IMG/VR virus record: IMGVR_UViG_3300048836_000042
Coordinates: 1-51,893 of that record
DNA length: 51,893 bases
Strand: one strand, 5' to 3'
From: a virus
Taxonomy: Duplodnaviria; Caudoviricetes
Of this stretch, positions 8,953-41,881 are shown piece after piece. Position 1 is the first letter of the stretch. Each line of letters opens with the position of its first letter. The notes beneath the pieces are model-generated. The model made no database searches. It worked only from the letters and a program-made list of their open reading frames with translations, and was not told the DNA's origin. The translations under genes were made by a program, and so were the position numbers.

Positions 8953-8979
8953 AAAAAGGGGGCTTTAAGCCCCCTTTCT
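8953..8979. terminator. Bidirectional intrinsic terminator between the convergent arms
   Basis: AAAAAGGGGGC-TTTAA-GCCCCCTTT. Confidence 0.85.
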
Positions 8980-9428
8980 TATTTCTCCTTCATAATTAGT
9001 TTAGTGAATCCCATACCAGTGTTAGGATCAAACTTACTGGCAATCTTGACTGCCTCGTAAGGATCTTTACCACTAGCCATAGCTGCTTGTGCGAAGTGCA
9101 TACCACTACCTACTGAGAAGTGTGGTTCAGTAATCCTCATCCAGTTGTTCAACGTAGTACCGTGCATGATATAGCCTTTGTCTGTTAACACAAGCATTTC
9201 AATACCGCGACACTTTGGTTGTTTTTCTAGTGGATTATATAGCCAAGTAATAATAGGTCCGAAATTATCTGCGTTACCACAGAAGCCAATGAATGCTTTC
9301 TTGCACTCAAAGACTTCCGGCAATGGTACTTGATGGATTTTGGTTACGCCAGTCAGCTTCATTCCCGAAGCATGTGTGAACTGGCGGTCACCTGCCATCA
9401 TGTACTTGTTAACCGCGATTGTAGTTAT
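8979..9428 (-). CDS. HslV/proteasome-beta-like Ntn peptidase; probable ATA start
   Basis: (M)TTIAV...AGDRQ...GFCG...VGSG..FA.AAM..G....EAV.IA...D..TG; GGAG 8 nt upstream of ATA, and an in-frame stop two codons upstream. Confidence 0.75.
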   Translation of the reverse strand: MTTIAVNKYMMAGDRQFTHASGMKLTGVTKIHQVPLPEVFECKKAFIGFCGNADNFGPIITWLYNPLEKQPKCRGIEMLVLTDKGYIMHGTTLNNWMRITEPHFSVGSGMHFAQAAMASGKDPYEAVKIASKFDPNTGMGFTKLIMKEK

Positions 9429-9465
9429 TGCTTATACTCCGTCATCTACCCAGTCTGATCCCCAA

Positions 9466-12051
9466 TTAGACTCCGCAGGAACCCCCGTGCCCTGTGAGTT
9501 CACAGATATCCACTTCTTCGAAGACTGTTCCTTTGTGCTTGATTGCGTCCTCGTAGGGGACAACTGTGAGGGGCTGCCCTCCTCGTGATCCGTCGGGGTA
9601 GCACGTAAAACCTCTAAGACGAGGGGCATACCTCGCCAGGATACCAGCAAACGTGTTAACGTCTGATTCAGAATTTCCTCGTGAACCCCATGAGGGAAGG
9701 TTGATGGTAGAACTGATCGACATATCAACGTAGTCCTGAATGTCTGCTTGGAATTTGATTCGTCGTTCATAGTCATGTGCTAGGTCCAATGCTGTGTCAA
9801 TAGACTCAGGCTTTACTCCGTACTTTTCGATGAGGTTTTGAGCGGTCCCATCGACAACGAACTCGTATTTCCACTTTGTTCCATCCGTGAGATAACGTCG
9901 CTTATATGCCACTGCAAAGAGTGGTTCAATTCCTGTAGTTGTTCCAGCAAGAATTCCGATGGTACCAGTTGGTGCGATAGCGCGGTACGCAACGGGCCTG
10001 CTAATGTAATAACGGTCGCAGTGCTCATTTGCGCTTTTTTCAGACTCGGTTCGATATACTTCAAGCCATTGTTTGAGTTCATTTGTTACCTCGTATCTTT
10101 GTCCTCGTTGTAAGAGCCACTCGTGGATTCCCATGAGCCCAAGCCCAAGCCGACGATTCTTTTCTCGGACTCGATAAACTTTGTCATACGGGAGATCCGC
10201 ACGGAGAGTTCCGCAAACAAGGAACTTAGAGGCAAGTTGTACAACGGACTTGAACTGTTCAAGATTCTCAATATTCCCCATGTTGATGCTACCCAGATTA
10301 CAAACATCGCTGTCATCTTCCGAAGTAACCTCAGTGCAATTTGATACAATTATCCCCTCCGCCATAAAAGAGTGTTCATCTACCACAACGTCACAACAGT
10401 ATACATCAGAGTAGCCTGCATCCTCTACCGAAAGAACTTTGATTTTGGCTTTGCGGTAGGAATCATAAGAAGAAACTTTGAGCCGTTTAGTTGGAATGAT
10501 TTTAGCAAAACGAGAAGTGTATTCACTATATACCGTGAGCATATACCCCTGCGTTTGTCCATATGTAGAGAAACCAGCAGTTGAAATTCCGGCAAGGATA
10601 CCAAGACTTTCTAGCAGTCTACGAACTCCCTGCAAAAATGCTTCGTGCTTAGAGGCAACTCGTACTGCCCCCCTCTCGGCTACATAGTTTCCATCTGCAT
10701 CAAACAACCCGGCCAAGAAACTACATTGTTCTGCTGTAGGTTTGCCAAACAAATCCTCCGGGAATACCTCTTTGTGCCTATTAGCAAACAAGTTATGGTT
10801 CTTTGTGTATGCTCGCAAATATCCCCTAGAATCCGAGTAATTCCACGAAGTCAATAGATCCTTGTCAAAGTTATCAAAGCAGTCTCTACTCGCATCCGTA
10901 CAGAAAGATACGTCGGCCCGAGGATATGAACGATGAAATGTGCCATCACCATAGATATATCCTAGTGTGTAGTGTTTTGTGCAGAGAAAACTATCCACTT
11001 CATTGTTAAGTTGAATGAGTAGATTATCTCCCTCTTGGAGATCCTTTGCGGGTTTTTTAGTCCCATCTTCCAAGAAGAACTCATGGGTAGGTTCTGCAAC
11101 AATCTCCCGGCCACCGGACATATACACTCTAACTACCGAAGCGTTCTCCATTGTCTTGTTAAAGACAGTATTGGCCCACTGCTTACCTGTCCAGACCTTT
11201 ACTGTAGACCCGACAATATCCCTAATTTGCTTGTATCCATCAATGGTCAAGACATATGTATCTGGCCCCAATGGAGCGTTACGAAGTGTTTCATTCTCTT
11301 TATCCCCAAAGTTAAAGCTGAATCCTGGCTCACCAGTACGCATTGCTTGGTAGCAATTCTCAATAAACACGGAGTTATTTTCCAAGCCAAGACTGTGTCT
11401 GATTGAGGCGTCGTCATAGTTCACAGAAATATTGGTCATGTCAAGCGGAGCCCAAGCATTGAAGTTACGCTCTTTCATGGCCTTTACTTCATCTGACCAA
11501 TTCTTTGCTCTAAGGAAGTCAGGAATATCTTCATGTTGCCAATTAAGTGAAGCGTAGATTGCGGATCGCCTAGAGCCCCCTTGCATAATTCCACGTCCCA
11601 CCTCATTCATCATTTGCATCAGAGGGACCGGACCAGAGGCTAGTCCCCCGGTTTTTGACAAGGGTTTTCCAGCGGGGCGTAGCCTAGAATAATCTACCCC
11701 GATACCGCCACCAACCATTAAGCAGGAGCTAGCTCGCCAGAGAAGTTCCGCCCATTCTTCTCTGGTGTCATATTCTGCTCGTAATAGAAAACAGTTATTA
11801 TAATATTTATTCGGCCGCCCTGCGTAATAAAGGTATCGTCCTCCAGGTAGGAAGCGCATCTCTTTAATATGTTGGGCAAGTTCTCGTCGGTCCCCTTCCG
11901 ACATAAGTACAGGTAGGGTCCCCCCGCGACTGCCACAGACATCCTCAACCAGCCGGTCGGCGAGAGCATCCCAGTCATCACTTGGTCCTTGTGCATATTT
12001 TTGCCTAAAAATGTTTTGTGCAAAAGAAGTCTTAAATCGGTTTACCTGCAT
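9466..12051 (-). CDS. nrdJ: Ribonucleotide reductase, class II-like, intein-containing
   Basis: FLPGGR, NNCF, GGGIG, QGGSRRSA, NA|CTE...VCNLGS, APTGT motifs; no nrdB small subunit seen in the genome; likely start MQVNRF at 12051. Confidence 0.88.
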   Translation of the reverse strand: MQVNRFKTSFAQNIFRQKYAQGPSDDWDALADRLVEDVCGSRGGTLPVLMSEGDRRELAQHIKEMRFLPGGRYLYYAGRPNKYYNNCFLLRAEYDTREEWAELLWRASSCLMVGGGIGVDYSRLRPAGKPLSKTGGLASGPVPLMQMMNEVGRGIMQGGSRRSAIYASLNWQHEDIPDFLRAKNWSDEVKAMKERNFNAWAPLDMTNISVNYDDASIRHSLGLENNSVFIENCYQAMRTGEPGFSFNFGDKENETLRNAPLGPDTYVLTIDGYKQIRDIVGSTVKVWTGKQWANTVFNKTMENASVVRVYMSGGREIVAEPTHEFFLEDGTKKPAKDLQEGDNLLIQLNNEVDSFLCTKHYTLGYIYGDGTFHRSYPRADVSFCTDASRDCFDNFDKDLLTSWNYSDSRGYLRAYTKNHNLFANRHKEVFPEDLFGKPTAEQCSFLAGLFDADGNYVAERGAVRVASKHEAFLQGVRRLLESLGILAGISTAGFSTYGQTQGYMLTVYSEYTSRFAKIIPTKRLKVSSYDSYRKAKIKVLSVEDAGYSDVYCCDVVVDEHSFMAEGIIVSNCTEVTSEDDSDVCNLGSINMGNIENLEQFKSVVQLASKFLVCGTLRADLPYDKVYRVREKNRRLGLGLMGIHEWLLQRGQRYEVTNELKQWLEVYRTESEKSANEHCDRYYISRPVAYRAIAPTGTIGILAGTTTGIEPLFAVAYKRRYLTDGTKWKYEFVVDGTAQNLIEKYGVKPESIDTALDLAHDYERRIKFQADIQDYVDMSISSTINLPSWGSRGNSESDVNTFAGILARYAPRLRGFTCYPDGSRGGQPLTVVPYEDAIKHKGTVFEEVDICELTGHGGSCGV
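10339..11274 (-). mobile_element. 312-aa intein with LAGLIDADG homing endonuclease in RNR
   Basis: PLGPDT...EPTHEF...LGYIYGDG...LAGLFDADG...VYCCDV...HSF...IIVSN/C; removal restores NACTE. Confidence 0.9.
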
Positions 12052-12235
12052 CGTTTTCCCTGTTGTAGTATTCTTCACCAATTAGTTCATCTTTATATTC
12101 TTTAATCTCGGCAACAGCCTCTCTCTCTTGTTGCACTCGCAAGCGAAACCGCACACTCTTTGAATGATTGTGTGACAACACACTGTCGTCTGACTTTTCG
12201 TGTTTACGGTTGGATTTCTTTTCGGATGAACTCAT
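12032..12235 (-). CDS. Hypothetical protein
   Basis: Fills the gap before RNR in the operon direction. Confidence 0.5.
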   Translation of the reverse strand: MSSSEKKSNRKHEKSDDSVLSHNHSKSVRFRLRVQQEREAVAEIKEYKDELIGEEYYNRENDAGKPI

Positions 12236-12356
12236 CTTTTTCTAGGATCCTGTCTCGAAAGGTATCTACTAATTCTTCGGAGGTAATCTCTAGCAACTCA
12301 AGCAGAGTTACCTCATCAATATGGCGAAGCTCTTCTAGCAGCTCAATGTGGTTCAT
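12204..12356 (-). CDS. Small hypothetical protein (50 aa, not in the ORF track)
   Basis: MNHIELLEELRHIDEVTLLELLEITSEELVDTFRDRI...; ATGA overlap with the MazG-like stop. Confidence 0.7.
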   Translation of the reverse strand: MNHIELLEELRHIDEVTLLELLEITSEELVDTFRDRILEKDEFIRKEIQP

Positions 12357-12685
12357 CGCTCACTGCCAGATCCCATGATCAAATTACGTGCCTTACGGGA
12401 CTCCAGCTTTTCAATATTGCCTTTGGCTACATCCTCCAAGGACCAGTCATTGTCTCCAGCAATCTGACTGACGTACCATAGGATATCTCCGAGTTCCTTA
12501 TACAGCTTAGTAGCGGCCATATCTGGGCCGTAGTCCCCACGCAGAAGTCGCTTGAAGACAGCAGCCACTTCCCCGGCCTCTTCCAGCAGACCCATTACCC
12601 GCTCCTCTGGGGGAGCTGAGGGTACCCGGAAATCTGCGGCCTTACTCTGGTATTCGTTCAACGTCATGTCATTTTGCACCATCAT
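12353..12685 (-). CDS. MazG-like nucleotide pyrophosphohydrolase
   Basis: EYQ..A...GLLEEAGEV...KELGDILWY...LEDVA..N.EKL..R. Confidence 0.88.
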   Translation of the reverse strand: MMVQNDMTLNEYQSKAADFRVPSAPPEERVMGLLEEAGEVAAVFKRLLRGDYGPDMAATKLYKELGDILWYVSQIAGDNDWSLEDVAKGNIEKLESRKARNLIMGSGSER

Positions 12686-12854
12686 CTTCCTCCCAATACC
12701 TTACATAGAAAAACTCACCTAGATCCCTAATTCGTTCCCGGGGATACCCCTGCTCTACTAGCCAGTCTTCCGTGCTAGGAACAGCGTGAGGAATCTCCTT
12801 GGGAAATCCATAGCGCCAGCCCTCGGGTGGGTCACAAATCAATCGTTTAGCCAT
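12669..12854 (-). CDS. Hypothetical protein (DPPEGWRYGFPK)
   Basis: AGGA RBS, coupled to the next gene. Confidence 0.65.
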   Translation of the reverse strand: MAKRLICDPPEGWRYGFPKEIPHAVPSTEDWLVEQGYPRERIRDLGEFFYVRYWEEDDGAK

Positions 12855-12865
12855 AGGTGTTATTC

Positions 12866-13096
12866 CTAAATTTTATTAACATTACTCTTTGCTTCATCCA
12901 CCTGAACTGAAATATTAAATTTATCTAAGGAATCTTTATCACAGAAGATTCGCAACGTATCGTCTTTTCCAAGGGGAATTGTTGCTTCCCTCATTATTTC
13001 AGTATTAAATACAATCTTTGTAGGTGGGTCATAAAAATCCGTGTCAAAGAGCGCGTAGTAGTATTTAACGTTCATTTTTGGCGGACTCCACTTCAA
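12866..13096 (-). CDS. Hypothetical protein
   Basis: Operon-direction ORF; start uncertain. Confidence 0.5.
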   Translation of the reverse strand: MKWSPPKMNVKYYYALFDTDFYDPPTKIVFNTEIMREATIPLGKDDTLRIFCDKDSLDKFNISVQVDEAKSNVNKI

Positions 13097-13394
13097 TAAA
13101 CTTCTCTAGAAAATGGATGGCTTTGCGAATGTCATCAATACCACCCTTATCACGCCACCGTGCGATGTACTTTAGAGCCGTACCATCCAGGTAGCCAAGG
13201 CCCCACTCTGTAATCACATCCCACGGCTGGAGGTCACCATACTTCTTATAGTGATTCCCAGCGACTTGCTTTTCATTGGCTTTGGGTTGTTTATAACCCT
13301 GCATGTCGGCGATATCGTGTTCATTTACCATATCGTCTCTCCAGATACCCAAGTGAGACAGGCATGAGGTCAAATTCACCGTCATGTACTTCAT
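13065..13394 (-). CDS. DUF3310/SaV-like protein (start probably downstream, near MVNEHD)
   Basis: QVAGNHY...QPWD...G.ALKYIAR..DKGG.DDIRKA. Confidence 0.8.
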   Translation of the reverse strand: MKYMTVNLTSCLSHLGIWRDDMVNEHDIADMQGYKQPKANEKQVAGNHYKKYGDLQPWDVITEWGLGYLDGTALKYIARWRDKGGIDDIRKAIHFLEKFIEVESAKNER

Positions 13395-14085
13395 GAAGCA
13401 TCAGGCAACCACGCCAGTGCTTGTTCCCTTGTGGTCCCATGTAATCTTCGTCATGCTGATAACAACTCCCTGCAATAATGCTAGTTAATCGAGTTCCGTC
13501 CGCCCGGTGTCCTGTGGCGATTTGTAGACCTTGCTGATGACCGGCAACACAGGACATATGCTTTTTGTTAAGCTGTGCAGCGGCTGTAGTGCAAGGGCGA
13601 CCGAGAACACCAGAGGTAAAATAGTGACTGTAAGCAATCCCGTCGATAACAACAACGTCGAGAAATGGATATACCTCCCAACCGAACTCTTTATACTGGA
13701 GATCCTCGATAGAGAGAACCCCATCTAGTTTCGGGTCGTTGTTTGTAGCCTTGACAATTCTTTGCTCATGATTGCCGAGAGTAAGAACAAGTCGTGGTAG
13801 GTACCTTTCTCGATGACCTTTACGAGCTTTGCTGTTATACTCTCGGAGAGGGGAGAGTAAATGTTCCATAGCTCGGTGTGTAGCTGCGATGTCATCTTTG
13901 TACCGTCTGCCTTCAAACGATTTAGTACCGACATCATAACTAGAGAGTGAAGGCATGTCTGCAAAGTCTCCTCCACAGATAACAACTTCTGGCTTTTTGT
14001 CAACGATGTACTGTCCAACTCGGGTGAGGTAACTCGTATCATGTGTGGGCTTTACTTGGCAGTCTGGTATATAAAAATGTTTAAT
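13321..14085 (-). CDS. Calcineurin-like metallophosphoesterase; probable ATT start
   Basis: IPDCQ, GGDFADM, LGNHE, YSHY, AGHQQ motifs; GGGGG 7 nt upstream of ATT-AAA-CAT. Confidence 0.82.
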   Translation of the reverse strand: MKHFYIPDCQVKPTHDTSYLTRVGQYIVDKKPEVVICGGDFADMPSLSSYDVGTKSFEGRRYKDDIAATHRAMEHLLSPLREYNSKARKGHRERYLPRLVLTLGNHEQRIVKATNNDPKLDGVLSIEDLQYKEFGWEVYPFLDVVVIDGIAYSHYFTSGVLGRPCTTAAAQLNKKHMSCVAGHQQGLQIATGHRADGTRLTSIIAGSCYQHDEDYMGPQGNKHWRGCLMLHEVHDGEFDLMPVSLGYLERRYGK

Positions 14086-14258
14086 CGACAAACCCCCTTT
14101 CTTCGGTGTCATCAATTGAATTGAAAACATTCATGCCTTGAGCAGTCAGGAAATTAAGAGAGAAAGTAAGGAGTGCTTTAGCTTCCTCTGGACTGATGGA
14201 CTGAGTAAATTTAATAGAACCATCCTCTTCAAATACAGGCACATCAATAATTTTCATT
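14081..14258 (-). CDS. Small hypothetical protein (MKIIDVPVF...)
   Basis: AAAGGA RBS; start coordinate approximate. Confidence 0.6.
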
Positions 14259-16367: not shown

Positions 16368-16914
16368 TTAATTAAAGTTAATCTCTCGCATATCGGCTTT
16401 GTTCGGCCCAACCTTGATCTCACACATGAGAGGCAGTCGTAGGGCATAGTCGAACTCTTCTTTGCAGTAGATGTGTGTGTTCTCCACTGCATCTTTTAAC
16501 ATCACACTAATATTATACACGTTTTTCTCCGGCGTGTCAAGGACCAGGCTATCGTGGATGGTTTGAATAAATTCTCCTTCTAGACCAGACTCTTTAAAGC
16601 GTTTGAAGAACGCAACTCTGGCGAGCTTAACAAGATCAGCACCAAAGGACTGGATAGGGTAGTTCTTGATCTTAGTCTCAGGCCACTTCCATCCGTATGC
16701 TGTTTGCTTGGGAGCAAAGTTAAAGTAGCGTCCTGCCGGTGTTTCGAGGTATCCATTCTCCTTTACAAATTTGATGTCGTTGTAGTGTCCTCTGGCGATC
16801 CCTTTGTATTTCTCGTAGAACTCATCAATGACTCGTTGCCACTGACGCTCTGTAAAGCCAACGTCGATAAAGTCTGAATCCATCGAATAGCCATATGCAG
16901 ATGCTCCGTATAAT
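16368..16914 (-). CDS. Family A DNA polymerase, C-terminal gene, exon 2
   Basis: LYGA (end of motif B), GY.ETP.GR, NYPIQS.GAD, TIHDS (motif C). Confidence 0.92.
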
Positions 16915-17523
16915 CCTATATGTTAGCTGCATGTTCCCATGCAGAGCAGACTATATCATCACCCATTTGCATGGGTGGGGTGCGCTTCCACAGTCTCCTG
17001 TGTACTCTCTTTCGAGATAGTCGTTACACCTTCAAAGGAGTTCCAACACTTGTGTTCAATTTGATGGCATCGCTTGCACAATACCTCCAGATTGCTATCA
17101 ACATTGTTGGTCCGGTTGTGATCTTTGTGGTGCCCTGCCCAAGTTCCTCGCTTGGAGGCGTCGATATCTGTACCACATCGTTCACAACAATAATTAAGAT
17201 ATTCCAAACGTTCTCTTGCAAGTCGCTGGAATACTGACAAACCATGGCGGTAGCCGGAAGCATCCGGCCCCCTTTTACTGCCCCGCCCCACACCTTTGAA
17301 TAGACCTTTCTTAATAGTCCATTCTTTAATCTGCTGCTTCTGTTTTGCTTTTGCGCAGGGCTTGCAACGCTTCTGGTTTCTTCCAGTACGTTGAAGGACA
17401 ACACCACAGTCTGTACACTGCATAATTATTTTCCTTTGCTTGGCTCGGGATTGTCCGGTCTGGAGTTCCCCCGAATTCACACCCTTCAACTAATACATTA
17501 CTGTATTAGCGGCCTTTATTCAA
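16915..17523 (-). mobile_element. Group I intron (about 609 nt) in DNA polymerase motif B
   Basis: P1 with U.G pair (GCU|UU..AAGGC); R-like AACGACUA; S-like GAUAUAGUCU; P9 CUGCAUG-GGAA-CAUGCAG; terminal G; splicing gives F-K-L-L-Y-G in frame. Confidence 0.9.
16959..17423 (-). CDS. Intron-encoded HNH homing endonuclease
   Basis: MQCTDC...CERC...HHKDHNRTNN...NLEVLCKRCHQIEH; AAGGA RBS; 3' end overlaps the intron core. Confidence 0.88.
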   Translation of the reverse strand: MQCTDCGVVLQRTGRNQKRCKPCAKAKQKQQIKEWTIKKGLFKGVGRGSKRGPDASGYRHGLSVFQRLARERLEYLNYCCERCGTDIDASKRGTWAGHHKDHNRTNNVDSNLEVLCKRCHQIEHKCWNSFEGVTTISKESTQETVEAHPTHANG

Positions 17524-17693
17524 AGCTTGAAGATGAAGATTTTAGCGATTGTTCTAGTCGGTAGTTTGAATCGCTCTTGATTGAGCGCATGGAGATCCAG
17601 TTTGTTAGAAAGTTCTGTGTGTAATACGTCATCTTTGTACCTATCCTCTGCTACGAAGATCTCAAGGCTTTTTACGTCTGCATTAATCAGCAT
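17524..17693 (-). CDS. Family A DNA polymerase, C-terminal gene, exon 1 (not in the ORF track)
   Basis: MLINADVKSLE (motif A) ... DLH ... RTIAKIFIFKL (motif B). Confidence 0.9.
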
Positions 17694-19061: not shown

Positions 19062-19069
19062 TCATTACC

Positions 19070-19507
19070 TCAAACTTTGCACCATAATCTACGAATGTGA
19101 CCAACACTCACATTAAATTTAGCAGCAAGTATTTTACCCATACCATATTTGCGATTTGCTTTAATATAAGCAATATCGTCATCACTTAGGATGGCTCTTG
19201 GATTTTTAGTACCACGCCTATCATATCCTTTCCAACCAGTATTGTTGCCCGCTAGTTTGCGATCTCGCATATTATCATATCCATCCCCTAAATATAGGTG
19301 ATCTAAATTTACACAGGATGGATTATTACATCGGTGGAGCACCATTTTCCCATTCGGGATTTCTCCGTATTTAGCTTTATAAGCTTCACGATGAGCCCTA
19401 GCAGTTTTACCCTGTGAATTTTTACATAGGCCATATCCATCTTTATCTTTGCAAAATTTCCAAATTTTACAATCACTCAAATTTAATGATGTCTGCATAA
19501 CGTGCAA
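19070..19507 (-). CDS. Free-standing HNH endonuclease
   Basis: C..W...DKDGYG...AHR...VLHRCNNPSCVN.DHL..G...DNM.D; start probably TTG near 19480. Confidence 0.88.
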   Translation of the reverse strand: MHVMQTSLNLSDCKIWKFCKDKDGYGLCKNSQGKTARAHREAYKAKYGEIPNGKMVLHRCNNPSCVNLDHLYLGDGYDNMRDRKLAGNNTGWKGYDRRGTKNPRAILSDDDIAYIKANRKYGMGKILAAKFNVSVGHIRRLWCKV

Positions 19508-20726
19508 TCTCCGGTTTTATAATCGTTTCAAATCTGCCGTGACGTAGATCAGGAATACTGTCTTTGTCACCAAATAATTTGTTTTTACTGATATTAATAA
19601 ATCTTACGTATTCTTGGTTTTGGTCATGGGTTTTCCCAAGTCCAAGAATGAAGTCTGCTTCAGCTTGCTTGCTAGTCTTAGCATTGGCAACGTGCTCCAT
19701 AGTGAGGTAACGTACTCCTTCTGCGGTTCCGTCAGCTTGGCATACTCCGATGGCGGCATGTGAGTTTTTAGCCAACTCTCTAGCCCATTGATAAATTGCT
19801 CCAAGTCGAAGGTCATCTCGGTCAGCGGCGAATCCTCGGATCTTGTCGATTTGGTCGTAGACAACGAGTGCTGGTTGGTACTTCGCCACGATCTTTTCCA
19901 CATCGCCTTTTCCAATGATCGCCGAGTCAAAAAGTTTGAAATTCCCATTTGTTTCCTCGTTGAATTTCTCGTTGAAGTATCTAGCATTTGCCAGTAACTT
20001 ATCAAGCTCGATACCGAAGTATGCTTGATAGATACGAAGCATTACTTTCTTGCCGTCTTCCTCGTTGTTGAACCATACCGCAGGTCGTGTATTAGACATG
20101 AGCATCTGTGTAATCTCGCTTGCGAGGAAGGTAGTTTTGCCAGTTTCGGGTCTAGCGAATATAAATCCGAAATCGCCCTCTCTAAGCGAGCCAAGACTCT
20201 TGTTAAGACAGTCAAGTCGCCATCTGAGTCCTTGGTCTTTGTAGGATTGGTCAAGAATATCCTCTAAGTTGGTAGTTATTTCCGTTAATGAGTCTTCTTG
20301 CTGGGTATGATCGACCTTCTCGAACGCTTCAGTGTAGTAACTTTGGAGATCCTGCACTGTCTCGATGCCCTGGGCCACCTTATAAGCCTTCTCAGACAGC
20401 TTCAGAGCCCCGCTGCGCGTTTTAATCTCAAGCAGGATACCCTGCCCTACCTCCGGTGAAATGCGAAGCTCTGAGAGGCTTTCAAGCATTCCATCGTAGA
20501 TGGTCTTGTCTGCCGTAGGATACTTAACCCAGAAGTAGGCAGACAGTTCATCAATCGTTAAGTCATTGTCTGGGAATTTCTCATGTAATTCAAATAGAGA
20601 TGAATATAAATAACTTAATTCCCTATATGTTTCTTTGATATAATCTAAATTAACTAAGTCTTTATATTTACTATAGTTATCTTTAGATAACAATAATACT
20701 ATTAATTGTTTTTCAGGTATTACCAA
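19473..20726 (-). CDS. Replicative DnaB/T7 gp4-like helicase
   Basis: FARPETGKTT (Walker A), NNEE, VYDQ.DK, CQA, SKT.KQAEAD, KNK. Confidence 0.9.
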   Translation of the reverse strand: MVIPEKQLIVLLLSKDNYSKYKDLVNLDYIKETYRELSYLYSSLFELHEKFPDNDLTIDELSAYFWVKYPTADKTIYDGMLESLSELRISPEVGQGILLEIKTRSGALKLSEKAYKVAQGIETVQDLQSYYTEAFEKVDHTQQEDSLTEITTNLEDILDQSYKDQGLRWRLDCLNKSLGSLREGDFGFIFARPETGKTTFLASEITQMLMSNTRPAVWFNNEEDGKKVMLRIYQAYFGIELDKLLANARYFNEKFNEETNGNFKLFDSAIIGKGDVEKIVAKYQPALVVYDQIDKIRGFAADRDDLRLGAIYQWARELAKNSHAAIGVCQADGTAEGVRYLTMEHVANAKTSKQAEADFILGLGKTHDQNQEYVRFINISKNKLFGDKDSIPDLRHGRFETIIKPEIARYADIIKFE

Positions 20727-20924: not shown

Positions 20925-21605
20925 TTAGTTCTCCAGCATAGCTTTGTAGGACACAGGGAACAATGCCTCTAGATGGCTTTTAATGCCCTCTACAAGCTCA
21001 CGAGTCTCTTGTTGGGCATGGGGATCAAGGCGGAGCTTACAAACGCGACAGAAGGCCGCTAATGAGCCCGACCAAATCCACTCAGTCATGGTGTTTTGTG
21101 GCAGTACCATACGTGCTTGTTCCGGGGCAACGCCAGCATCAAGAAGATCATTATACACAAAACACATTTCTTGCACTTGAGTGCCTACTCGTGCGGAAAT
21201 CAACATATTAGGCTGGGCGTCATCCACTACTCCGCTACTGCCTTGTTTTGCATTCTCTGGCTTACCTCGCCACTCATTAGGGAACCAGAATTCTGGCTCG
21301 TCGTCAACATACCGTCTACTGACTTCATTCCACGCTAAACCGACCTGATGTTTCACTAACTGTCGTGCAACAAAGATAGGAGCTTTGATGCGGAAGCTCA
21401 GGAAAGCATGTGCAAACGGAGTCCAATGGTTGTGTCGTGCAAGATAATTGATTAACTTGCAGTCTTTTTCAGATAGTTCACCAATACTGTCCCGACTATA
21501 ATCCCAGTCGCTTTCTTTAGCAAAAGATACTCGGGCCGCGTTAACGACGCTAAGATCAGAACCCATGTGATCAACCAATTCCACCGACATTGGAGAGATT
21601 TTCAT
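20925..21605 (-). CDS. thyX: Flavin-dependent thymidylate synthase
   Basis: VVNAARVS, HWTPF, ARQLVKH...NEVSRRY, EQARMVLP, HAQ.E. Confidence 0.95.
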   Translation of the reverse strand: MKISPMSVELVDHMGSDLSVVNAARVSFAKESDWDYSRDSIGELSEKDCKLINYLARHNHWTPFAHAFLSFRIKAPIFVARQLVKHQVGLAWNEVSRRYVDDEPEFWFPNEWRGKPENAKQGSSGVVDDAQPNMLISARVGTQVQEMCFVYNDLLDAGVAPEQARMVLPQNTMTEWIWSGSLAAFCRVCKLRLDPHAQQETRELVEGIKSHLEALFPVSYKAMLEN

Positions 21606-22302
21606 TAATTTCCTTAAAGGTTAGAGATTTAGGATCTTTATCAGTAGAGATAATACTGACTGGATTATCAATAATACTCTCTAACTGTAATGCTTTCTTC
21701 TTTACGTTTAGTTCCTGGTCTTTATCCAACCATAGAACAACAGGTTTATTTGCTTGTCTCAGGTAATAGTAATGACAGGGATGAAAAGCAGTCCCGAATA
21801 AACAAATAGTGGTATTAATTTGACCTACTTTATGTAGTGATACTACATCTTCGACAACCACAATTCGATCGGATCGTTGATCTTCTCCGACAACTTCTGT
21901 GTGTCGGTGGCAGTCCCCCCAGACGTACCACTTTCGGGTGCGTCTGTCTGGTTCTCCCAGAAATCTTCCGATGGAAAAGGCCATCGGGGAACCGACCGTG
22001 AATACGAGTCGGTTGAAGGCTTCAGAATAGCCGGTATATTCTTTCCAGTAGGTGTATGGGAGTCCGTATTGTAGGAGCCATTCCCAGGCTTTTGCTGGGA
22101 CTTCTCTGGTGAAGTCAAAAGGTAACAGACTTTTTGCGACATCTGGCTTAGCCTCAATGCGTTGAAAGAATTTGGGGTATACATGGAATCCACAAGCAAA
22201 GCAGTGAGAATGCCCATTGCCATATACAACAAGGTTATCCCCCCGGCTATCTTTACCGTTTGCTACACATCGTGGACAAGACTCATAGTGATAATTAGCA
22301 AT
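21571..22302 (-). CDS. DNA primase (Zn ribbon + TOPRIM); probable ATT start
   Basis: Frame is open upstream of the tracked ATG: (M)ANYHYESCPRC...DNL..Y..GH.HCFACG, then VVVED, WLDKD, KDPK; AGGGG RBS, and TAA-T-ATT follows the upstream gene. Confidence 0.88.
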   Translation of the reverse strand: MANYHYESCPRCVANGKDSRGDNLVVYGNGHSHCFACGFHVYPKFFQRIEAKPDVAKSLLPFDFTREVPAKAWEWLLQYGLPYTYWKEYTGYSEAFNRLVFTVGSPMAFSIGRFLGEPDRRTRKWYVWGDCHRHTEVVGEDQRSDRIVVVEDVVSLHKVGQINTTICLFGTAFHPCHYYYLRQANKPVVLWLDKDQELNVKKKALQLESIIDNPVSIISTDKDPKSLTFKEINENLSNVGGIG

Positions 22303-22303
22303 A

Positions 22304-22567
22304 TTAATATCCCCTTTCCATCCTGCGTTCCCATGCCCCCATGGCCGCGTCGATGGAGGCGTCTAGTGATGGTGCGGGCGCGTGTTGCGTGCCGTCTGCC
22401 GCTAGGTAGTGGGTGGAGACAAACCGAGTGCCATCGGATGCTGTCCAGTGGGTTCCGTCTGTGCGCAAATCAAGGCTGCGGCGGGAGCGCAGCCACCGAT
22501 ACCGCTCCGCGTCCTCCCGCAGCGCATCGCGCTCGGCCCGCAGCGCCTGGTACTTGTCACTCATCAT
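22304..22567 (-). CDS. GC-rich hypothetical protein (DAERYRWLR...IDAAM motif)
   Basis: GAGGAGG RBS; this motif is typical of lambdoid ead/ea22-like genes. Confidence 0.7.
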   Translation of the reverse strand: MMSDKYQALRAERDALREDAERYRWLRSRRSLDLRTDGTHWTASDGTRFVSTHYLAADGTQHAPAPSLDASIDAAMGAWERRMERGY

Positions 22568-26680: not shown

Positions 26681-27317
26681 TCAGCTCCTCCACACGGTAC
26701 GGGAATCCGTTCCGATGAATAACATCATTAAGTTCCTGTGTAACTTTGAAAGAGGGGTCAATTGAGAGTACCCTCGTGGTGTGATCGACCGTGCCGATCT
26801 CTGTCGCATAGAAGTAGACCGCGCCCTGAGTCATTGCGAAGTGTTTAGACAAGGCAACTGTTGGAGCAGTGGGATCGACATCGGCATACTGGTACGTCTG
26901 GGGACTTCCAAAGATACCTGCAAGAAGCCGCAGAGACAATTTCTGTGGAATCAAACCGAGAGCAGTCAGCTTCTGGATACTGGTATTATTTCGGCTAATA
27001 CCCCTTTTCCACTGTCGTGCTGGAATTCGACTCATGTAGTATACCGAGGAATCCTCTCCGGTGAAGTATCCCCTGTCCACCTGAATAAACTCAAACATCA
27101 CATTAGAGTCAATGTTTGCGTGGAAGAGCATACCATCGTCATCCGTATTGAAGTACACAGCATCCCGGGTATTCTCCCGGATGTAGATCAGACGCTTTTG
27201 ATTATCCGATTTAATTAGGAACCCGTAGGTGTCCAGATAGCGAGGACCGAAGTCCCGCATGTTCTCGTGCGTGTATGTCTCAAGCATGTTGTGGCATAGG
27301 CAGTTGAAGTGACTCAA
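26673..27317 (-). CDS. Hypothetical protein within the ligase cluster
   Basis: Y..RIPARQWKRG motif; coupled on both sides. Confidence 0.7.
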   Translation of the reverse strand: MSHFNCLCHNMLETYTHENMRDFGPRYLDTYGFLIKSDNQKRLIYIRENTRDAVYFNTDDDGMLFHANIDSNVMFEFIQVDRGYFTGEDSSVYYMSRIPARQWKRGISRNNTSIQKLTALGLIPQKLSLRLLAGIFGSPQTYQYADVDPTAPTVALSKHFAMTQGAVYFYATEIGTVDHTTRVLSIDPSFKVTQELNDVIHRNGFPYRVEELNA

Positions 27318-28077
27318 TCAGCAGGCGGGCTCCCGCCTTGTCATTGTTGTTGATAACACCTTGAATATCGTCGGCAAGAACATCCACATTAATAGTCTTA
27401 TTATGCCATGCCTCCATAGCAGCGGAAGTTGCGTCCCAAATCCAGGCAGTCAACACAGGATCAAGCACCCAGAAGTTGGAAAGACTGCGGTACTCCACTC
27501 CATACGGTTTGATTCGGCAGGCGCCAGCTTTACCATACAGATTCTTACGCAGATCCCCCTCATCCAACAGGGTACTCGGTACACCGAGGAATAGATCAAG
27601 GTATTTAACAAAGTTAAAGGCTTGCTTACGGGACTTGAACTTGTGTCCAACGTGGACGTGTCCACCGCAGGTACGCAGTCGCCTATCCGTAGCAGCAGGT
27701 CGCGGATTAGCCTTACCGTCAAGCCAAGCATTGAAGTCTGGGTCACACCCGAACTGCATTGCGGCAGGATGCAGCAACTCCTGCATTGGGAAGGAAACAG
27801 CCGAGGTACTAGCGAACTTGTACCCTTTCTGCTGCACCATATCTGTCAGGTAGGACATCGCCCGATTAATGGTATTAACGAACTGCTCCTTGTCCTGGGA
27901 AGGGGGCACATTGTACTCCAGTGCCACGTTGTCCTCTTGCACAGCGAACCCATCCCCGATAGGGAGGGGCATCGGGTTGCTCTTGGAGCCTCCGATACGT
28001 CCACACGCTGCGATGTAAGCACCAGCAGCATCTTGCAGGAACAACTCGGGATCAGCACCAATTACGAATTTACGCAT
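27280..28077 (-). CDS. phiEco32-like COOH-NH2 ligase type 2
   Basis: IGADPELF, QEDNVALE, FGCDPDFNAW, RTCGGHVHVG, R..LYGKAG..R.KPYGVEYRSLSNFW. Confidence 0.92.
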   Translation of the reverse strand: MRKFVIGADPELFLQDAAGAYIAACGRIGGSKSNPMPLPIGDGFAVQEDNVALEYNVPPSQDKEQFVNTINRAMSYLTDMVQQKGYKFASTSAVSFPMQELLHPAAMQFGCDPDFNAWLDGKANPRPAATDRRLRTCGGHVHVGHKFKSRKQAFNFVKYLDLFLGVPSTLLDEGDLRKNLYGKAGACRIKPYGVEYRSLSNFWVLDPVLTAWIWDATSAAMEAWHNKTINVDVLADDIQGVINNNDKAGARLLIESLQLPMPQHA

Positions 28078-28078
28078 A

Positions 28079-28519
28079 TTAATCCTTGTAATGGAAAATG
28101 AACGCCTTCAAGCAATGGTAGACCTTGCGCTCTGGGTAGTTGCTATTCCCAGCCCAGTCTGTCTCAAACACCTTGTACTTCCAAAGATCAAACTCTTGCA
28201 TGAATCTCTTGAACGTAGCCTCTTGGATATTAGTGAGAATAAATATGTGTGTCTCGTTATCTTTCTTGGCATCCACATACGCGCTTTTGAAGCCGGCTTT
28301 ACTCATCGCCAGCAGGTCGTCATAGGTTTTTTTTCCCCCCGGATGTGTACGTTCGTATGCTTCCGTATAGGTTTCGCATAGCCTCTCAAAAGATTCGCAC
28401 CCGAATATCTTCCCACCATTAATCCGAGCATAGCTATCGTATTCCTCTTGAGTGGTGCAGTACCACCCTGCATCAGGAATAGTCCGAAGAGCATCAAAGT
28501 GACAGCTCTTAATCTTCAT
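28079..28519 (-). CDS. Hypothetical protein
   Basis: GGAG RBS, coupled. Confidence 0.65.
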   Translation of the reverse strand: MKIKSCHFDALRTIPDAGWYCTTQEEYDSYARINGGKIFGCESFERLCETYTEAYERTHPGGKKTYDDLLAMSKAGFKSAYVDAKKDNETHIFILTNIQEATFKRFMQEFDLWKYKVFETDWAGNSNYPERKVYHCLKAFIFHYKD

Positions 28520-32896: not shown

Positions 32897-32981
32897 TGGT
32901 GCGACCGATGGGACTCGAACCCATACGGATTACTCCGGCAGATTTTAAGTCTGCTGTGGCTACCAATTACACCACGGTCGC
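32897..32981 (-). tRNA. tRNA-Leu(UAA), CCA encoded
   Basis: GCGACCG/CGGTCGC acceptor stem, GCAGA-CTTAAAA-TCTGC anticodon arm, long variable arm, GGTTCGAGTCC T arm, ACCA end. Confidence 0.95.
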
Positions 32982-37138: not shown

Positions 37139-37141
37139 TTT

Positions 37142-37441
37142 ATGCCGTACATGACCGACGGAAAGCGGGACTACAAAAAAGAGGTGGCCAAATACACCTC
37201 CAAGCCCGAAGTAGTAAAGAAGCGTGTGGAGCAGAATAAAGCTCGTCGTATGGCTGAAAAAGAGGGTTTGGTGAAGAAGGGGGATGGCAAAGAGGTAGAT
37301 CATCGTAAACCCCTCTCTAAAGGGGGCACTACGACAAAATCAAATCTTCGTGTGGTTCCCGCCAAAGAAAACCGTTCGTTTAGCCGAAATAAAGATGGCT
37401 CTTTAAAAAATCAAACTAGTCGCCGTGAACGAAAAAAATAA
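37142..37441 (+). CDS. Small HNH protein (terminase-associated type)
   Basis: EVDHRKPLSKGG....NLRV....NRS. Confidence 0.8.
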   Translation: MPYMTDGKRDYKKEVAKYTSKPEVVKKRVEQNKARRMAEKEGLVKKGDGKEVDHRKPLSKGGTTTKSNLRVVPAKENRSFSRNKDGSLKNQTSRRERKK

Positions 37442-37480
37442 TTGCTCTAAATGTGGTTTATTTGCAGGGCAGGGTAAATA

Positions 37481-37918
37481 ATGTCTTTCTGGGGTAAACT
37501 GTTTGGCACTGATGAAGCCATCAGCAAAACAATTGATGTTGTTAGCGAAGGGCTTGACAAGCTAGTTTACACCTCTGAAGAGAAGGCGGATGCCGCCGCC
37601 AGGGAGCGGACAGAAGCTCGCTCCATGCTTGTTAAGTGGATGGAAGCCACGCAGGGCCAAAATCTTGCACGTAGGCTTATTAGTCTTGCTATCACAGGTG
37701 TCTGGTTATCCCAATACGTTATTGCTACTACTGCTTCCTCCGTTGCTATTTTCTGGGATACGCAATCAATTAATCTAAATAAATTGGCTGCTGTTCAAAT
37801 CGGTACTGCTGAACAGATGAACGGACCAGTAATGCTGATCTTAGCTTTCTACTTTGCTGCACCACACATGGGAGATTTTGCCCAGGCAATCGTCGGTAGA
37901 TTTAAGCAAAAAGTATAA
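37481..37918 (+). CDS. Holin-like membrane protein
   Basis: LD.LVYT.EEKA, two TM helices, ILAFYF. Confidence 0.6.
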   Translation: MSFWGKLFGTDEAISKTIDVVSEGLDKLVYTSEEKADAAARERTEARSMLVKWMEATQGQNLARRLISLAITGVWLSQYVIATTASSVAIFWDTQSINLNKLAAVQIGTAEQMNGPVMLILAFYFAAPHMGDFAQAIVGRFKQKV

Positions 37919-38202
37919 TGTACTCGAATTGCCTGTTCTGGTCAATCCGACGGTTTTGCCAGTTACAAAAAGAATGGATTGAAAACGGGGAGCAGAAAGG
38001 CTACGAGCCTGTCTGGTATCTCCGATCAAGTAGACTAGCCCCTTGGTGGGTTCCATCATGGGGTGTTGAGCGCCGAGTAGGCAATAAGATTATCACTGAA
38101 AAGTTTTCTCCAGAAAATAAAGAACGATTGAAGTGGTATCAAGTCTGGCGAAAATTCTGGTTTAAGGGTTATGTTGAAGTAACATATGCAGTTAACAAGT
38201 GA
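37918..38202 (+). CDS. Trp-rich hypothetical protein
   Basis: TAATG-coupled ORF. Confidence 0.55.
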   Translation: MYSNCLFWSIRRFCQLQKEWIENGEQKGYEPVWYLRSSRLAPWWVPSWGVERRVGNKIITEKFSPENKERLKWYQVWRKFWFKGYVEVTYAVNK

Positions 38203-39685
38203 AATTATTGCCGGTTTTAGTGGAAGTTTATTACAAAAAAGTTATGATCAAGCCGTCGAATCCCCTGAATGTCACGCCGAATGGTGGGACTTATGTACAT
38301 CCAAGGCCCCGAAGGTCGCAATTGCCGCTCCGAGGCGACATGCGAAAAGTACCGCAATTACTTTGGCCTACGTACTGGCGTGTCTACTGTTTCGCAACAG
38401 GAAATATGCCCTAATTGTTTCTGATACCATCACTCAGGCAACTCAGTTCCTGGGAGATATCAAGAAAGAGTTAGCAGACAACGATAGAATTATCAAGCTC
38501 TTTGGGATCAAAGAGTTTCTAAAAGACACCGAAGACGATGTGATTATCGCCTTCACAGATGGAGAACAGTTCCGTATTACTGCCAAAGGCTCCGAACAAA
38601 AACTTCGTGGTTTAAAGTGGAACAACAAACGACCCGATTTAATTGTAGGAGACGACCTTGAAAACGATGAAATCGTTCTCAACGCTGAACGTAGACAAAA
38701 GTTTAAACGCTGGTTCTACGGTGCTCTGGTTCCTTCTCTGGCTGTTAATGGCGTCATTAGGATTGTGGGGACTATTCTACACGAAGACAGCCTACTGAAC
38801 AACCTGATGCCCTCTGACTACGATAGAGATACCGTAGTAGAAGAGCTAAAGACGTACAACCCAAGAGCAACCAACAGTTGGAAAGCTCTTAAGTATCGAG
38901 CCCACTCAGATGATTTCAAGTACATCTTGTGGCCCCAGCGATACAAAGCAGATTGGTTCTTGTCCGAAAGACAGGATTTTATTGACCGCGGATTGGCGGA
39001 TGTATATTCTCAGGAATACCTGAACATCCCAATTGATGAAAGTGTTGCTTACTTCCGAAAGAGTGACTTCGTAGCTGAACATTCGGAAGACAAGAAAGCC
39101 AAGCTTAACTATTATATCACAGCGGACTTGGCAATTTCCCAGAAAGAAACAGCGGACTACTCCGTTTTTCTTATTGCTGGTGTGGATGAGAACAGAGTTA
39201 TCCATGTACGAAATGTGATCCGTGAGCGGTTGGATGGTAAAGAGATTGTAGACACCCTACTTAATTTACAAAAAGTCTACAACCCAGAGCTAGTCGGTAT
39301 CGAAGAAATGCAGGTGTCCAAGGCAATTGGACCGTTCCTTCGAGAAGAGATGATCAAGACCGGCAATTATATCAATCTTATTCCCCTGAAACACGGGGGT
39401 AAAGACAAGATTGCCAGGGCAAAGTCAGTACAGGCCCGGGTTAGGGCAAGAGCAGTAAAGTTTGATAAGTCAGGTGATTGGTACTCTATTTTCGAGGATG
39501 AACTTTGTAAGTTTCCTCGTGGAACGAAAGATGACCAAGTTGACGCATTCGCCTATTTGGGGCTAATGTTAGATTCATTAATCGAAGCCCCAACACGAGC
39601 AGAAGAAGAGGAAGAACAATACTACGATGATTTATCCAGAGCAAACCTCGGGAATGATGGCAAATCAGCCCTCTGTGGATACTAA
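38186..39685 (+). CDS. terL: Terminase large subunit
   Basis: APRRHAKST, LRG, RPDLIVGDDLE, GT.LHED, QEY.N, DLA, DDQVDA. Confidence 0.95.
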   Translation: MQLTSEIIAGFSGSLLQKSYDQAVESPECHAEWWDLCTSKAPKVAIAAPRRHAKSTAITLAYVLACLLFRNRKYALIVSDTITQATQFLGDIKKELADNDRIIKLFGIKEFLKDTEDDVIIAFTDGEQFRITAKGSEQKLRGLKWNNKRPDLIVGDDLENDEIVLNAERRQKFKRWFYGALVPSLAVNGVIRIVGTILHEDSLLNNLMPSDYDRDTVVEELKTYNPRATNSWKALKYRAHSDDFKYILWPQRYKADWFLSERQDFIDRGLADVYSQEYLNIPIDESVAYFRKSDFVAEHSEDKKAKLNYYITADLAISQKETADYSVFLIAGVDENRVIHVRNVIRERLDGKEIVDTLLNLQKVYNPELVGIEEMQVSKAIGPFLREEMIKTGNYINLIPLKHGGKDKIARAKSVQARVRARAVKFDKSGDWYSIFEDELCKFPRGTKDDQVDAFAYLGLMLDSLIEAPTRAEEEEEQYYDDLSRANLGNDGKSALCGY

Positions 39686-41720
39686 AGAATCCATGCGTGC
39701 TCTGGTAGAGAGCACTAACCTGATTAAGAAGTTTAAAGAAGATCAGTTAATGGAGCTTGCTGAGCAAGTCTCTACTGGTTTCGAGCATGATCTACTTTCC
39801 CGTGCAGAGTGGGATAAGGCCGCCAAAGAGTGGACAGAACTAGCCCTACAGGTACGTCGGGAAAAGACTTATCCATGGCCAGGCGCAGCAAACGTTAAGT
39901 ATCCCCTACTGTCCACCGCTGCAATGCAGTTCAATGCTCGCTCTTATCCTTCTCTCGTTCCCTCAGACGGCAATATTGTAAAAACTATTGTTGTGGGCTC
40001 TGACCCCACTGGGGAAAAGAAAACCCGGGCAGAGCGGGTTGGGAAGTACATGTCGTACCAGATCCTCCATGAAATGGATGGCTGGGAAGAAGACATGGAC
40101 AAACTCCTGATTATGCTTCCTATTGTTGGAATGGCATTCAAGAAGACATACTTCAGTCCGATTACTAAAAAGAATGTCAGTGAATTGGTCTTTCCTAAGA
40201 ATCTTGTTGTTAACTACTGGACTAAGAACTTAGAAGAAGCTGACCGCATTTCTGAGATCATCATGATGCCACAGCGCGTCCTGAAATCTCGTCAAATGTC
40301 TGGTATTTTTGACAAGAACGTTGATTTAGGGGAACCCCATGCCCACATTGAACAAGATCAAGCAGTCGCTATCCGCCAAGATGAAACACTTCCGTACTTC
40401 ATTGTCGAGCAGCATTGCTACTATGACAAAGACGGTGACGGATACCCTGAACCGTACATTGTCACATTTGAGCGTTACAGCAAAAAGCTTCTACGAGTCG
40501 TCGCTAGATTCGATGAAGAGTGTGTTTCAGTCGGAGAGGATGGAAAACTTCAAGAAATCCGTCCAATCCAGTATTACACCAAGTATGGCTTTATTCCTAA
40601 TCCTGATGGCTCTTTTTATGACATTGGCTTTGGTGTCCTGCTTGGCCCGCTAAACGAATCTGTAAACACCCTGATTAACCAGCTTCTGGATTCAGGGCAC
40701 CTCTACAACCTACAAGCCGGCTTCTTAGGCAAAGGCTTGAAGATGAAAATGGGTGAGGCCCAGTTCAAACCCGGTGAGTGGAAAGTTCTCACTGGAGCTA
40801 TCGGGGATGATCTGAAGAAACAGATCATGCCTCTTCCGGTCAAGGAACCCTCAAACGTTCTATTCCAGCTTATGGGTACATTAGTGACCTCGGGTAAGGA
40901 ACTCGCTTCTGTAGCTGAAATCTTCACAGGCAAGATGCCAGGGCAGAACACCCCTGCTACTACGACTATGGCTACGGTAGAGCAGGGCATGAAGGTATTC
41001 ACGGCTGTCTATAAGCGGATTTACCGCGCCCTTGCCCTTGAATTCAAAAAGCTGTATGAACTGAATCGTTTATACGCCGAACCAAATAAGTATCAAATGA
41101 TTGTGGACACAGCGATTGGTCCCGATGATTTTGATAAGCAAAGCTATGATGTTTGTCCTGCTGCTGATCCTAATGCGCTATCGCAATCAGAAAGGTTGAT
41201 GAAAGCCCAAGGTCTGCTGGAACTACTTCCGTCAGGGATGCTTGATCCTGTCAAGGTCATTTCTCGTGTTCTAGAAGCACAAGAACAACCCAACTGGCAA
41301 GAGCTTCTTAATCAGCAGGTCAGAGAGACCGGGCAACCTCCCCCACCTCCGCCTGATCCGAAACTGATGGCTATCCAAGCTAAAGCAGAAACAGATCAGA
41401 AGAAAGCTGCTGTTGATATTCAGAAGAAACAAATGGACATGGAGCTAAGTGCCCGTGACCAGCAACTGAAAGCAGCCATGGAGCAACAGAAGCATGCACA
41501 AGACATGCAGAACAAGACCCAGATGGCACAACTAGATGCTGCCAGCAAACTACAGATGAGCGAGATTTTCGCCGCCGAGGCTAAAGCCAAGGCAATGCAA
41601 GGGCTCACACAGGGCGAGCAACAGCATCAGCAGAAACTTCAACAGATGAAGGAGAAATCAAAATCGCAACAAGGGAACAGTGGCGGGACTGGAAAGAATC
41701 AGTCTGCACGAAAGAAATAA
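39627..41720 (+). CDS. Portal protein (start possibly 39654)
   Basis: PWPGAANV..PLL, G.AFKKTY, FYDIGFG, Q/M-rich C-terminal barrel; follows terL. Confidence 0.88.
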   Translation: MIYPEQTSGMMANQPSVDTKESMRALVESTNLIKKFKEDQLMELAEQVSTGFEHDLLSRAEWDKAAKEWTELALQVRREKTYPWPGAANVKYPLLSTAAMQFNARSYPSLVPSDGNIVKTIVVGSDPTGEKKTRAERVGKYMSYQILHEMDGWEEDMDKLLIMLPIVGMAFKKTYFSPITKKNVSELVFPKNLVVNYWTKNLEEADRISEIIMMPQRVLKSRQMSGIFDKNVDLGEPHAHIEQDQAVAIRQDETLPYFIVEQHCYYDKDGDGYPEPYIVTFERYSKKLLRVVARFDEECVSVGEDGKLQEIRPIQYYTKYGFIPNPDGSFYDIGFGVLLGPLNESVNTLINQLLDSGHLYNLQAGFLGKGLKMKMGEAQFKPGEWKVLTGAIGDDLKKQIMPLPVKEPSNVLFQLMGTLVTSGKELASVAEIFTGKMPGQNTPATTTMATVEQGMKVFTAVYKRIYRALALEFKKLYELNRLYAEPNKYQMIVDTAIGPDDFDKQSYDVCPAADPNALSQSERLMKAQGLLELLPSGMLDPVKVISRVLEAQEQPNWQELLNQQVRETGQPPPPPPDPKLMAIQAKAETDQKKAAVDIQKKQMDMELSARDQQLKAAMEQQKHAQDMQNKTQMAQLDAASKLQMSEIFAAEAKAKAMQGLTQGEQQHQQKLQQMKEKSKSQQGNSGGTGKNQSARKK

Positions 41721-41881
41721 CATACGCTTATAAGCAGCGTATTCTAGCCATCCAGGAGTTACTGGGTGTTTCCGCAGGATTAGATCCTGCTCAAGATCGG
41801 TTCCATACAGGTTATATTGCAGCAGTCAATGATTTCTTGAACATGGAACTAATTGATGAGGAGACTCAAGAGGATGATTAA
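41663..41881 (+). CDS. Small post-portal protein (72 aa, not in the ORF track); probable ATC start
   Basis: (M)ATREQWRDWK...T...D...G.I.A..DFL; AAGGAG 8 nt upstream of ATC; stop overlaps the GroES-like ATG. Confidence 0.7.
   Translation: MATREQWRDWKESVCTKEITYAYKQRILAIQELLGVSAGLDPAQDRFHTGYIAAVNDFLNMELIDEETQEDD

Follow-up and report, generated by a model that had tools for sequence, protein, structure and literature searches.

In IMG/VR record IMGVR_UViG_3300048836_000042, a complete, metagenome-assembled viral genome that is 51,893 bp long and carries direct terminal repeats (analyzed as a whole and called the window here), genes encoding a DNA primase, an HslV-like peptidase and a small protein that follows the portal protein appear to begin at ATT, ATA and ATC, respectively, and a metallophosphoesterase gene probably begins at a further ATT. 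With a probability of about 80%, ATT 22302, ATA 9428 and ATC 41663 are true initiation codons, ATT 14085 probably is as well, and all act by weak near-cognate initiation with a low yield of protein. AUH starts (AUU, AUA or AUC; ATH in the DNA) are of a known kind. What is new is how often they occur and how long they persist in families of phage genes, together with the link of one family to ATGA overlaps. The four codons and their Shine-Dalgarno (SD) sites had been proposed in an earlier note made from the letters of this DNA; all lie at the positions it gave, three of the genes being on the minus strand. The features concerned are as follows.

21571..22302, minus strand: DNA primase gene (Zn ribbon and Toprim; phrog_47 DNA primase, E 4e-19), predicted start ATT at 22302..22300
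22311..22315, minus strand: SD-like AGGGG, 8 nucleotides (nt) before the primase ATT, with an anti-SD duplex free energy (dG) of -7.8
22304..22306, minus strand: TAA of the upstream gene of 93 amino acids (aa), ending 1 nt before the primase ATT
8979..9428, minus strand: HslV-like N-terminal-nucleophile (Ntn) peptidase gene (phrog_1040, HslV family, E 9e-29), predicted start ATA at 9428..9426
9437..9440, minus strand: SD GGAG, lying 8 nt ahead of the peptidase ATA and replaced by GGGG in other strains
9432..9434, minus strand: in-frame TAA that ends the upstream gene (114 aa), two codons ahead of the peptidase ATA
41663..41881, plus strand: post-portal small gene (72 aa, acidic C-terminus), predicted start ATC at 41663
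41649..41654, plus strand: SD AAGGAG, within the coding sequence of the portal gene and 8 nt ahead of the ATC
39627..41720, plus strand: portal gene, the last 58 nt of which overlap the post-portal gene, the latter in the -1 frame
13321..14085, minus strand: metallophosphoesterase gene (phrog_221, E 9e-55), candidate start ATT at 14085..14083, alternative TTG at 14091..14089
14093..14097, minus strand: SD-like GGGGG, 7 nt before the ATT; dG -11.9 for ATT and -4.2 for TTG

Start sites in the window

No canonical start (ATG, GTG or TTG) lies upstream of the conserved or essential N-terminal residues of the primase, the peptidase or the post-portal protein. These three can be regarded, on the sequence, as firm AUH-start cases, because none has a usable canonical start; the phosphoesterase gene, with its TTG 14091, is not among them. 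The primase frame runs from stop to stop over 21571..22362 on the minus strand, and the Zn ribbon (CPRC...HCFAC) precedes every in-frame ATG, GTG or TTG, just as the earlier note had observed: the first such codon is at 21984, 98 codons past the ribbon. The start context described for the peptidase is likewise present, reading TAA GCA ATA ACT ACA ATC GCG, with Thr-Thr-Ile-Ala directly after the ATA and GGAG 8 nt ahead; the first canonical codon is ATG 9401. The peptidase family profile matches HslV chains in PDB (E 8e-8), and this match and the Thr right after the initiator mark the product as a predicted Ntn hydrolase of the HslV type. That Thr is presumably the catalytic residue. The enzyme would need it exposed as residue 1 once Met is removed, and the start would be pinned to the codon before Thr because Thr must be the first residue after that removal. 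For the post-portal gene, the proposed AAGGAG-N8-ATC (41663) arrangement was found intact.

The phosphoesterase ATT overlaps the upstream stop (ATTAA). This gene had been ranked as the weakest of the four on account of a TTG, and TTG 14091 does lie two codons upstream of the ATT, but the in-frame ATG 14130, TTG 14115 and ATG 14112 had been missed.

Across the four sites, the SD spacing is 7-8 nt and dG ranges from -6.1 to -11.9. An SD-like site (dG <= -6) also precedes 93 of the 779 internal in-frame ATH codons in the window (12%). An SD with an ATH codon is thus common in itself, and the signal lies in position at an open reading frame (ORF) boundary and in conservation among relatives.

In a window-wide ORF scan, only the four AUH genes and ORF 16368..16922 had no usable canonical start close to the boundary of the ORF. 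The latter was set aside as exon 2 behind a group I intron. Further ORFs flagged by an all-against-all comparison (27280..28107, 42948..43394, 48479..50605 and the portal gene) were rejected: overlap with the previous gene mimics upstream conservation, and a normal ATG is present. Self-splicing introns were considered as a cause of the missing starts and also rejected; no Rfam intron model matches beside the four AUH sites, the sole group I intron being that at 16927..17533 in the DNA polymerase gene.

Start codons among relatives

The nearest isolate is Alcaligenes phage vB_Af_QDWS535 (OK172329.1; L033/L037), with a large terminase identity of 54%. A DNA search against isolate phages gave short thyX and helicase matches only and no close relative, and a literature search on QDWS535 found no paper. 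Metagenomes from at least seven studies of activated sludge and wastewater contain near-identical DNA. Two complete relatives, G001 (50.4 kb) and G003 (52.6 kb; the same as L034), were compared gene by gene, and trees were built with FastTree only and are unrooted. The earlier note had predicted that the codon would toggle among AUG, AUA, AUU and AUC in aligned orthologues, and this is seen for the peptidase, primase, phosphoesterase and post-portal genes, all of which have orthologues with start codons at the aligned position. Its view that the AUH codons are starts and not sequencing errors is supported by this toggling and by recurrence in relatives.

A portal-anchored scan yielded 378 relatives, and 80 loci were kept, which with the window, G001 and QDWS535 make 83 sources; a conserved small ORF in the -1 frame follows the portal gene in 81 of them. 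A post-portal start was scored as canonical if any ATG, GTG or TTG lies 5-13 codons before a conserved Trp. Under this rule, the 72 distinct contexts divide into ATC (27), ATT (26), ATG (11), GTG (6) and none (2). ATC or ATT therefore occurs in 53 of the 72, the Alcaligenes phage isolate included, and an in-frame canonical codon lies upstream in none of the 53. G003 has AAGGAG-N8-ATC, G001 has AAGGAG followed by ATC ATC ATC, and QDWS535 has AAGGAG-N7-ATC. The annotation of the QDWS535 record has several gaps, and the one that follows its portal gene, 185 nt long, is where the conserved 72-aa ORF (3313..3531) falls.

The two classes of post-portal start differ in their relation to the portal gene. 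A canonical start shares no more than 4 nt with the portal stop (ATGA or GTGA), whereas the ATH class has a median overlap of 58 nt; the median SD dG is -8.8 in the ATH class versus -5.6 in the canonical class. The portal codon lying over the ATH start is TTA (26), TCA (13), TCG (8) or TCT (6), and most of these are one change from TGA, so that a change from ATGA to ATCA or ATTA would cost the portal gene its stop and at the same time weaken the start. By a single such change, the portal TGA would be gone, the portal tail would gain about 19 codons, and the start would now be ATC or ATT; if so, one mutation can reshape two overlapping genes. Two ATH clades (38 and 25 rows) hold together in the FastTree tree as far down as about 60% portal identity, and five changes occur over the whole tree.

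It may be asked whether recoding could replace initiation in two of these genes, the post-portal protein being a -1 frameshift extension of the portal protein and the peptidase a product of TAA readthrough followed by self-cleavage at Thr. In most relatives the post-portal ORF does overlap the portal gene, from which it differs by a -1 shift in frame, the peptidase is in frame with its upstream gene with one TAA between them, and proteasome-type Ntn hydrolases can self-cleave off a propeptide. Against this, a slippery heptamer (X XXY YYZ, scanned with YYY as AAA or TTT) occurs in the overlap at 0 of the 53 ATH loci, the -1 frame in QDWS535 and G001 opens just 3-4 codons before the ATC, at the SD, and an AAGGAG-type SD is conserved 5-9 nt upstream of the post-portal start. 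Peptidase relatives vary in upstream frame and stop, yet the codon before Thr is always of start type. Recoding is thus very improbable.

The preferred reading, initiation at the AUH codons themselves, can be followed in the peptidase family, which may serve as a natural read-out of usable start codons because Thr must be residue 1. Starting from 76 loci, 64 match from residue 1 and represent 54 distinct contexts. The codon before Thr is ATG in 22, GTG in 12, TTG in 9, ATA in 6, ATC in 4 and CTG in 1, and Thr is next in all 54. Near-cognate starts thus account for 11 of the 54 distinct relatives; an SD core at 6-9 nt is present in 11/11 of these versus 30/43 of the canonical ones. The FastTree tree has 10 start-state changes, at least seven of them forced by well-supported branches, and the states are unclustered. 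The closest relative of the window peptidase (95% identity) has TTG, and G001 and G003 have ATA, with the first canonical codon of G001 lying 43 codons downstream. Three records of HslV-like genes from cultured phages are annotated from the aligned first codon, presumably canonical, and provide no cultured AUH example.

Primase relatives (19 sources) start 7-12 codons ahead of the first Cys, with ATG, GTG or TTG in 15 of 16 distinct contexts, the window being the sole ATH. G001 has ATG and G003 has TTG, the start region of the latter reading TTG AAT TTG versus ATT AAT ATT in the window. For the phosphoesterase, 81 sources, less 35 not matching the motif and 17 duplicates, leave 29 distinct relatives, of which 11 have ATG, 4 TTG and 4 ATT as the aligned codon. 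ATT is found in the window and in relatives at 100%, 84% and 77% identity; in each of these four contexts, a TTG lies 1 nt from the SD and the ATT lies 7 nt from it. The aligned codon is ATG in G001, in G003 and in G002, a 99% identical strain with a different upstream gene. ATT is somewhat favoured over TTG as the phosphoesterase start, and the case is still two-way.

Two genes without an AUH start in the window were used for comparison.

19473..20726, minus strand: DnaB-like helicase gene, TTG start in the window
41874..42200, plus strand: Cpn10-like gene (Pfam Cpn10, E 3e-9), just downstream of the post-portal gene; control

The helicase family toggles as well. G001 has AAGGAG-N6-ATT, with the first canonical codon at 61, and G003 has GGAG-N8-ATA, with the first at 106; the G003 start is not coupled to upstream translation, as it lies behind a promoter-like site (TTGACA-N17-TATACT). 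From 84 helicase sources came 72 usable rows, which represent 65 distinct contexts (canonical in 42, ATH in 21, none in 2), and the first canonical codon of the ATH relatives lies up to 140 codons downstream. At least nine start changes occur in the helicase tree, and the supported 15-row clade that holds the window has 13 ATH rows. The Cpn10-like control has a canonical start in 51 of 51 distinct relatives. The portal start was also used as a control; the 9 of 56 loci flagged there as non-canonical were rejected as an anchor artefact, all nine having an in-frame ATG before the conserved block.

These comparisons also bear on whether the AUH codons could be assembly errors, or the genes pseudogenes left after start loss. 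The window is a metagenome assembly, and the primase ATT is unique to it. However, the same AUH codons occur in independent assemblies and in an isolate genome, the ATH clades persist over deep divergence with intact and conserved ORFs, and the primase and helicase are essential replication genes. Changes that flank the codons in other strains are synonymous: in contigs of four runs from four studies, a comparison in which stretches without contig cover carry no meaning, the peptidase ATA is flanked by synonymous changes at 9423 and 9414, and 9438 T>C converts GGAG to GGGG. The earlier note had also called for mapped reads at the four codons. Among the best-supported variants, which extend no further than 11593 and exclude 255 others, none changes the ATA (9426-9428); such a change may still exist among the others. 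Contigs differing by 5-6 per kilobase span 14085. Artefact or decay is scarcely credible as an explanation. A separate observation from these contigs is that those of all four runs diverge from the window at 22339..22347, within the GC-rich gene (93 aa) that comes before the primase gene; strains therefore differ in the sequence preceding the primase start.

Yield, regulation and comparison with known systems

Initiator fMet-tRNA would read each near-cognate AUH codon, aided by a strong SD 7-8 nt upstream. Such starts would give far less protein than ATG, which may suit proteins needed in small amounts, here enzymes and a minor head protein. The expected low yield is an analogy with E. coli, in which near-cognate codons yield about 1-2% of AUG (10.1101/063800). 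E. coli IF3 discriminates against non-canonical start codons (PMC2268962; PMC5499595), and sensitivity of the phage AUH genes to IF3 can fairly be expected because IF3 inhibits non-canonical initiation there; the existence of a cultured relative makes this directly testable. A phage tRNA acting as a special initiator was considered and rejected, as the only tRNA in the window is tRNA-Leu(UAA).

Several points weigh against AUH initiation or parts of it. Every start is deduced from DNA alone, and E. coli supplied the anti-SD sequence and the assumed levels of expression, from which the host may differ. The best-supported variants stop short of both ATT codons, so neither is covered base by base. 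The phosphoesterase has the canonical TTG two codons upstream, and under a conservative rule all 29 distinct relatives are scored as canonical, each having such a codon in range. The primase ATT, found in 1 of 16 contexts, could be a recent, mildly harmful change. Among post-portal loci, L054, which counts as one of the 53 ATH contexts, has a poor alignment and no SD, and L072 and L075 have GTT at the aligned codon with no recognised start in range. The direction of change from ATGA to ATYA (Y, C or T) is itself presumed, because the tree is unrooted. In L072 and L075, close relatives have ATT where GTT is found, and either the gene has been lost or GTT serves as a start (compare the GTC of Streptomyces sigR).

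The earlier note went further and suggested that the AUH genes may be an IF3-sensitive regulon. In this model the phage would switch the set on or throttle it as one, and an early protein or an ADP-ribosyltransferase that acts on the initiation machinery might be the phage factor involved. In its favour are, besides the discrimination by IF3 in E. coli, the GTC start of Streptomyces sigR, a regulated case that depends on IF3 (PMC5472188), and the unusual abundance of AUH starts in this phage group, with 3-4 among the roughly 80 genes of a genome. The comparative data do not bear out a coordinated set, however. A fixed regulon is unsupported because the AUH genes differ between genomes: the primase ATH occurs only in the window, the helicase has ATH in G001 and G003 and TTG in the window, and the peptidase toggles at least seven times without clustering. 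The AUH genes are spread over both the replication (early) and head (late) modules. Nor did a phage factor emerge: there is no match to IF3_C (PF00707) or to ADPrib_exo_Tox (PF03496), the one ADP-ribosyltransferase family tried, in the window, and a 1440-aa protein has no Pfam match. Gene overlap also offers a simpler, structural cause for the post-portal ATC and ATT. Taken as a whole, such a regulon is improbable.

A related possibility is that the phage group or its hosts have relaxed or switchable start discrimination, whether during infection, through a phage protein or through some peculiarity of host IF3 or initiator tRNA, and that the repeated gains of AUH starts are adaptive and not the result of drift. 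This is unlikely, although were it true, the helicase, primase, peptidase and post-portal protein would form a translation class that tracks the state of the initiation machinery.

Known near-cognate starts resemble those described here in part. In E. coli, infC and pcnB (AUU) also combine a near-cognate AUH codon with an SD, are poorly read and are discriminated against by IF3 (10.1101/063800; PMC5499595). They are the only confirmed near-cognate starts in that species, and such starts are considered great rarities among bacteria (10.1101/063800). Unlike these single genes, the phage has several AUH genes per genome, using ATT, ATA and ATC; infC is moreover controlled by the protein that it encodes, a kind of feedback of which the phage shows no sign. 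Deinococcus dnaA is similarly a replication gene with an ATC start that is conserved in its lineage and missed by gene callers (PMC2830850). The Deinococcus starts (ATC in dnaA, CTG in rpsL) come from N-terminal proteomics, whereas the phage starts are predicted from DNA; the phage pattern spans gene families across hundreds of contigs. In Streptomyces, the non-canonical GTC of sigR sets the stoichiometry of co-transcribed genes, although it concerns a single regulatory gene for which an effect of IF3 was shown experimentally (PMC5472188).

The canonical-class post-portal genes, with ATGA or GTGA at the portal stop, resemble coupled ATGA overlaps such as that of M13 genes V and VII, and re-initiation is sensitive to IF3 (PMC2268962). 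The window class differs in its 58-nt overlap and ATC start, and its initiation must therefore occur inside a translated gene. The peptidase shares with HslV and proteasome beta-type proteins an N-terminal Thr-Thr-Ile, a GSG motif and the PHROG and PDB profile matches; unlike HslV, it is shorter (149 aa), phage-encoded and known from sequence. Searches of open-access text gave no earlier account of AUH starts that are conserved within families of phage genes. Standard gene callers cannot call AUH starts, which leaves gaps such as that at the QDWS535 post-portal gene, and they may truncate other genes: a peptidase called from ATG 9401 would lose its Thr.

Intervening elements and genome context

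Genes in the window lie on the plus strand over 1-8.9 kb, on the minus strand over 9-35 kb and on the plus strand again over 36-52 kb. In RNA runs, less than 0.1 of the window's sampled words are present, and these runs carry no information on expression. The primase and helicase genes are separate, and a flavin-dependent thymidylate synthase (thyX-like) gene (20925..21605, minus strand) lies between them. The helicase gene is followed by a free-standing HNH_3 homing endonuclease gene (19070..19516, minus strand), which is absent in contigs of three of the four runs (joint 19069 to 19528, 458 nt).

The family A DNA polymerase gene is split by the group I intron at 16927..17533 on the minus strand (Rfam RF00028, 58 bits), which contains an HNH endonuclease ORF (16959..17489); an intron-less form of the gene also occurs in contigs of all four runs (joint 16914 to 17524, 609 nt). 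The polymerase of G003 is split. At approximately 13085..13120 of G003, the C-terminal half has its first canonical codon only at codon 36, past a conserved INADVK block, and an ATC overlaps the upstream TAA (TAATC), which may be an AUH start or a frameshift joint.

Another insert is found in the 871-aa ribonucleotide reductase (ORF 9466..12081, minus strand), in which a LAGLIDADG intein occupies 10339..11274 (Pfam Intein_splicing and LAGLIDADG_3). The 936-nt intein insert is absent from contigs in all four runs, and the G001 ribonucleotide reductase is 561 aa long. The gene for tRNA-Leu(UAA), at 32897..32981 on the minus strand, sits in the most GC-rich part of the window, which reaches 58% at 32-34 kb compared with about 47% elsewhere.

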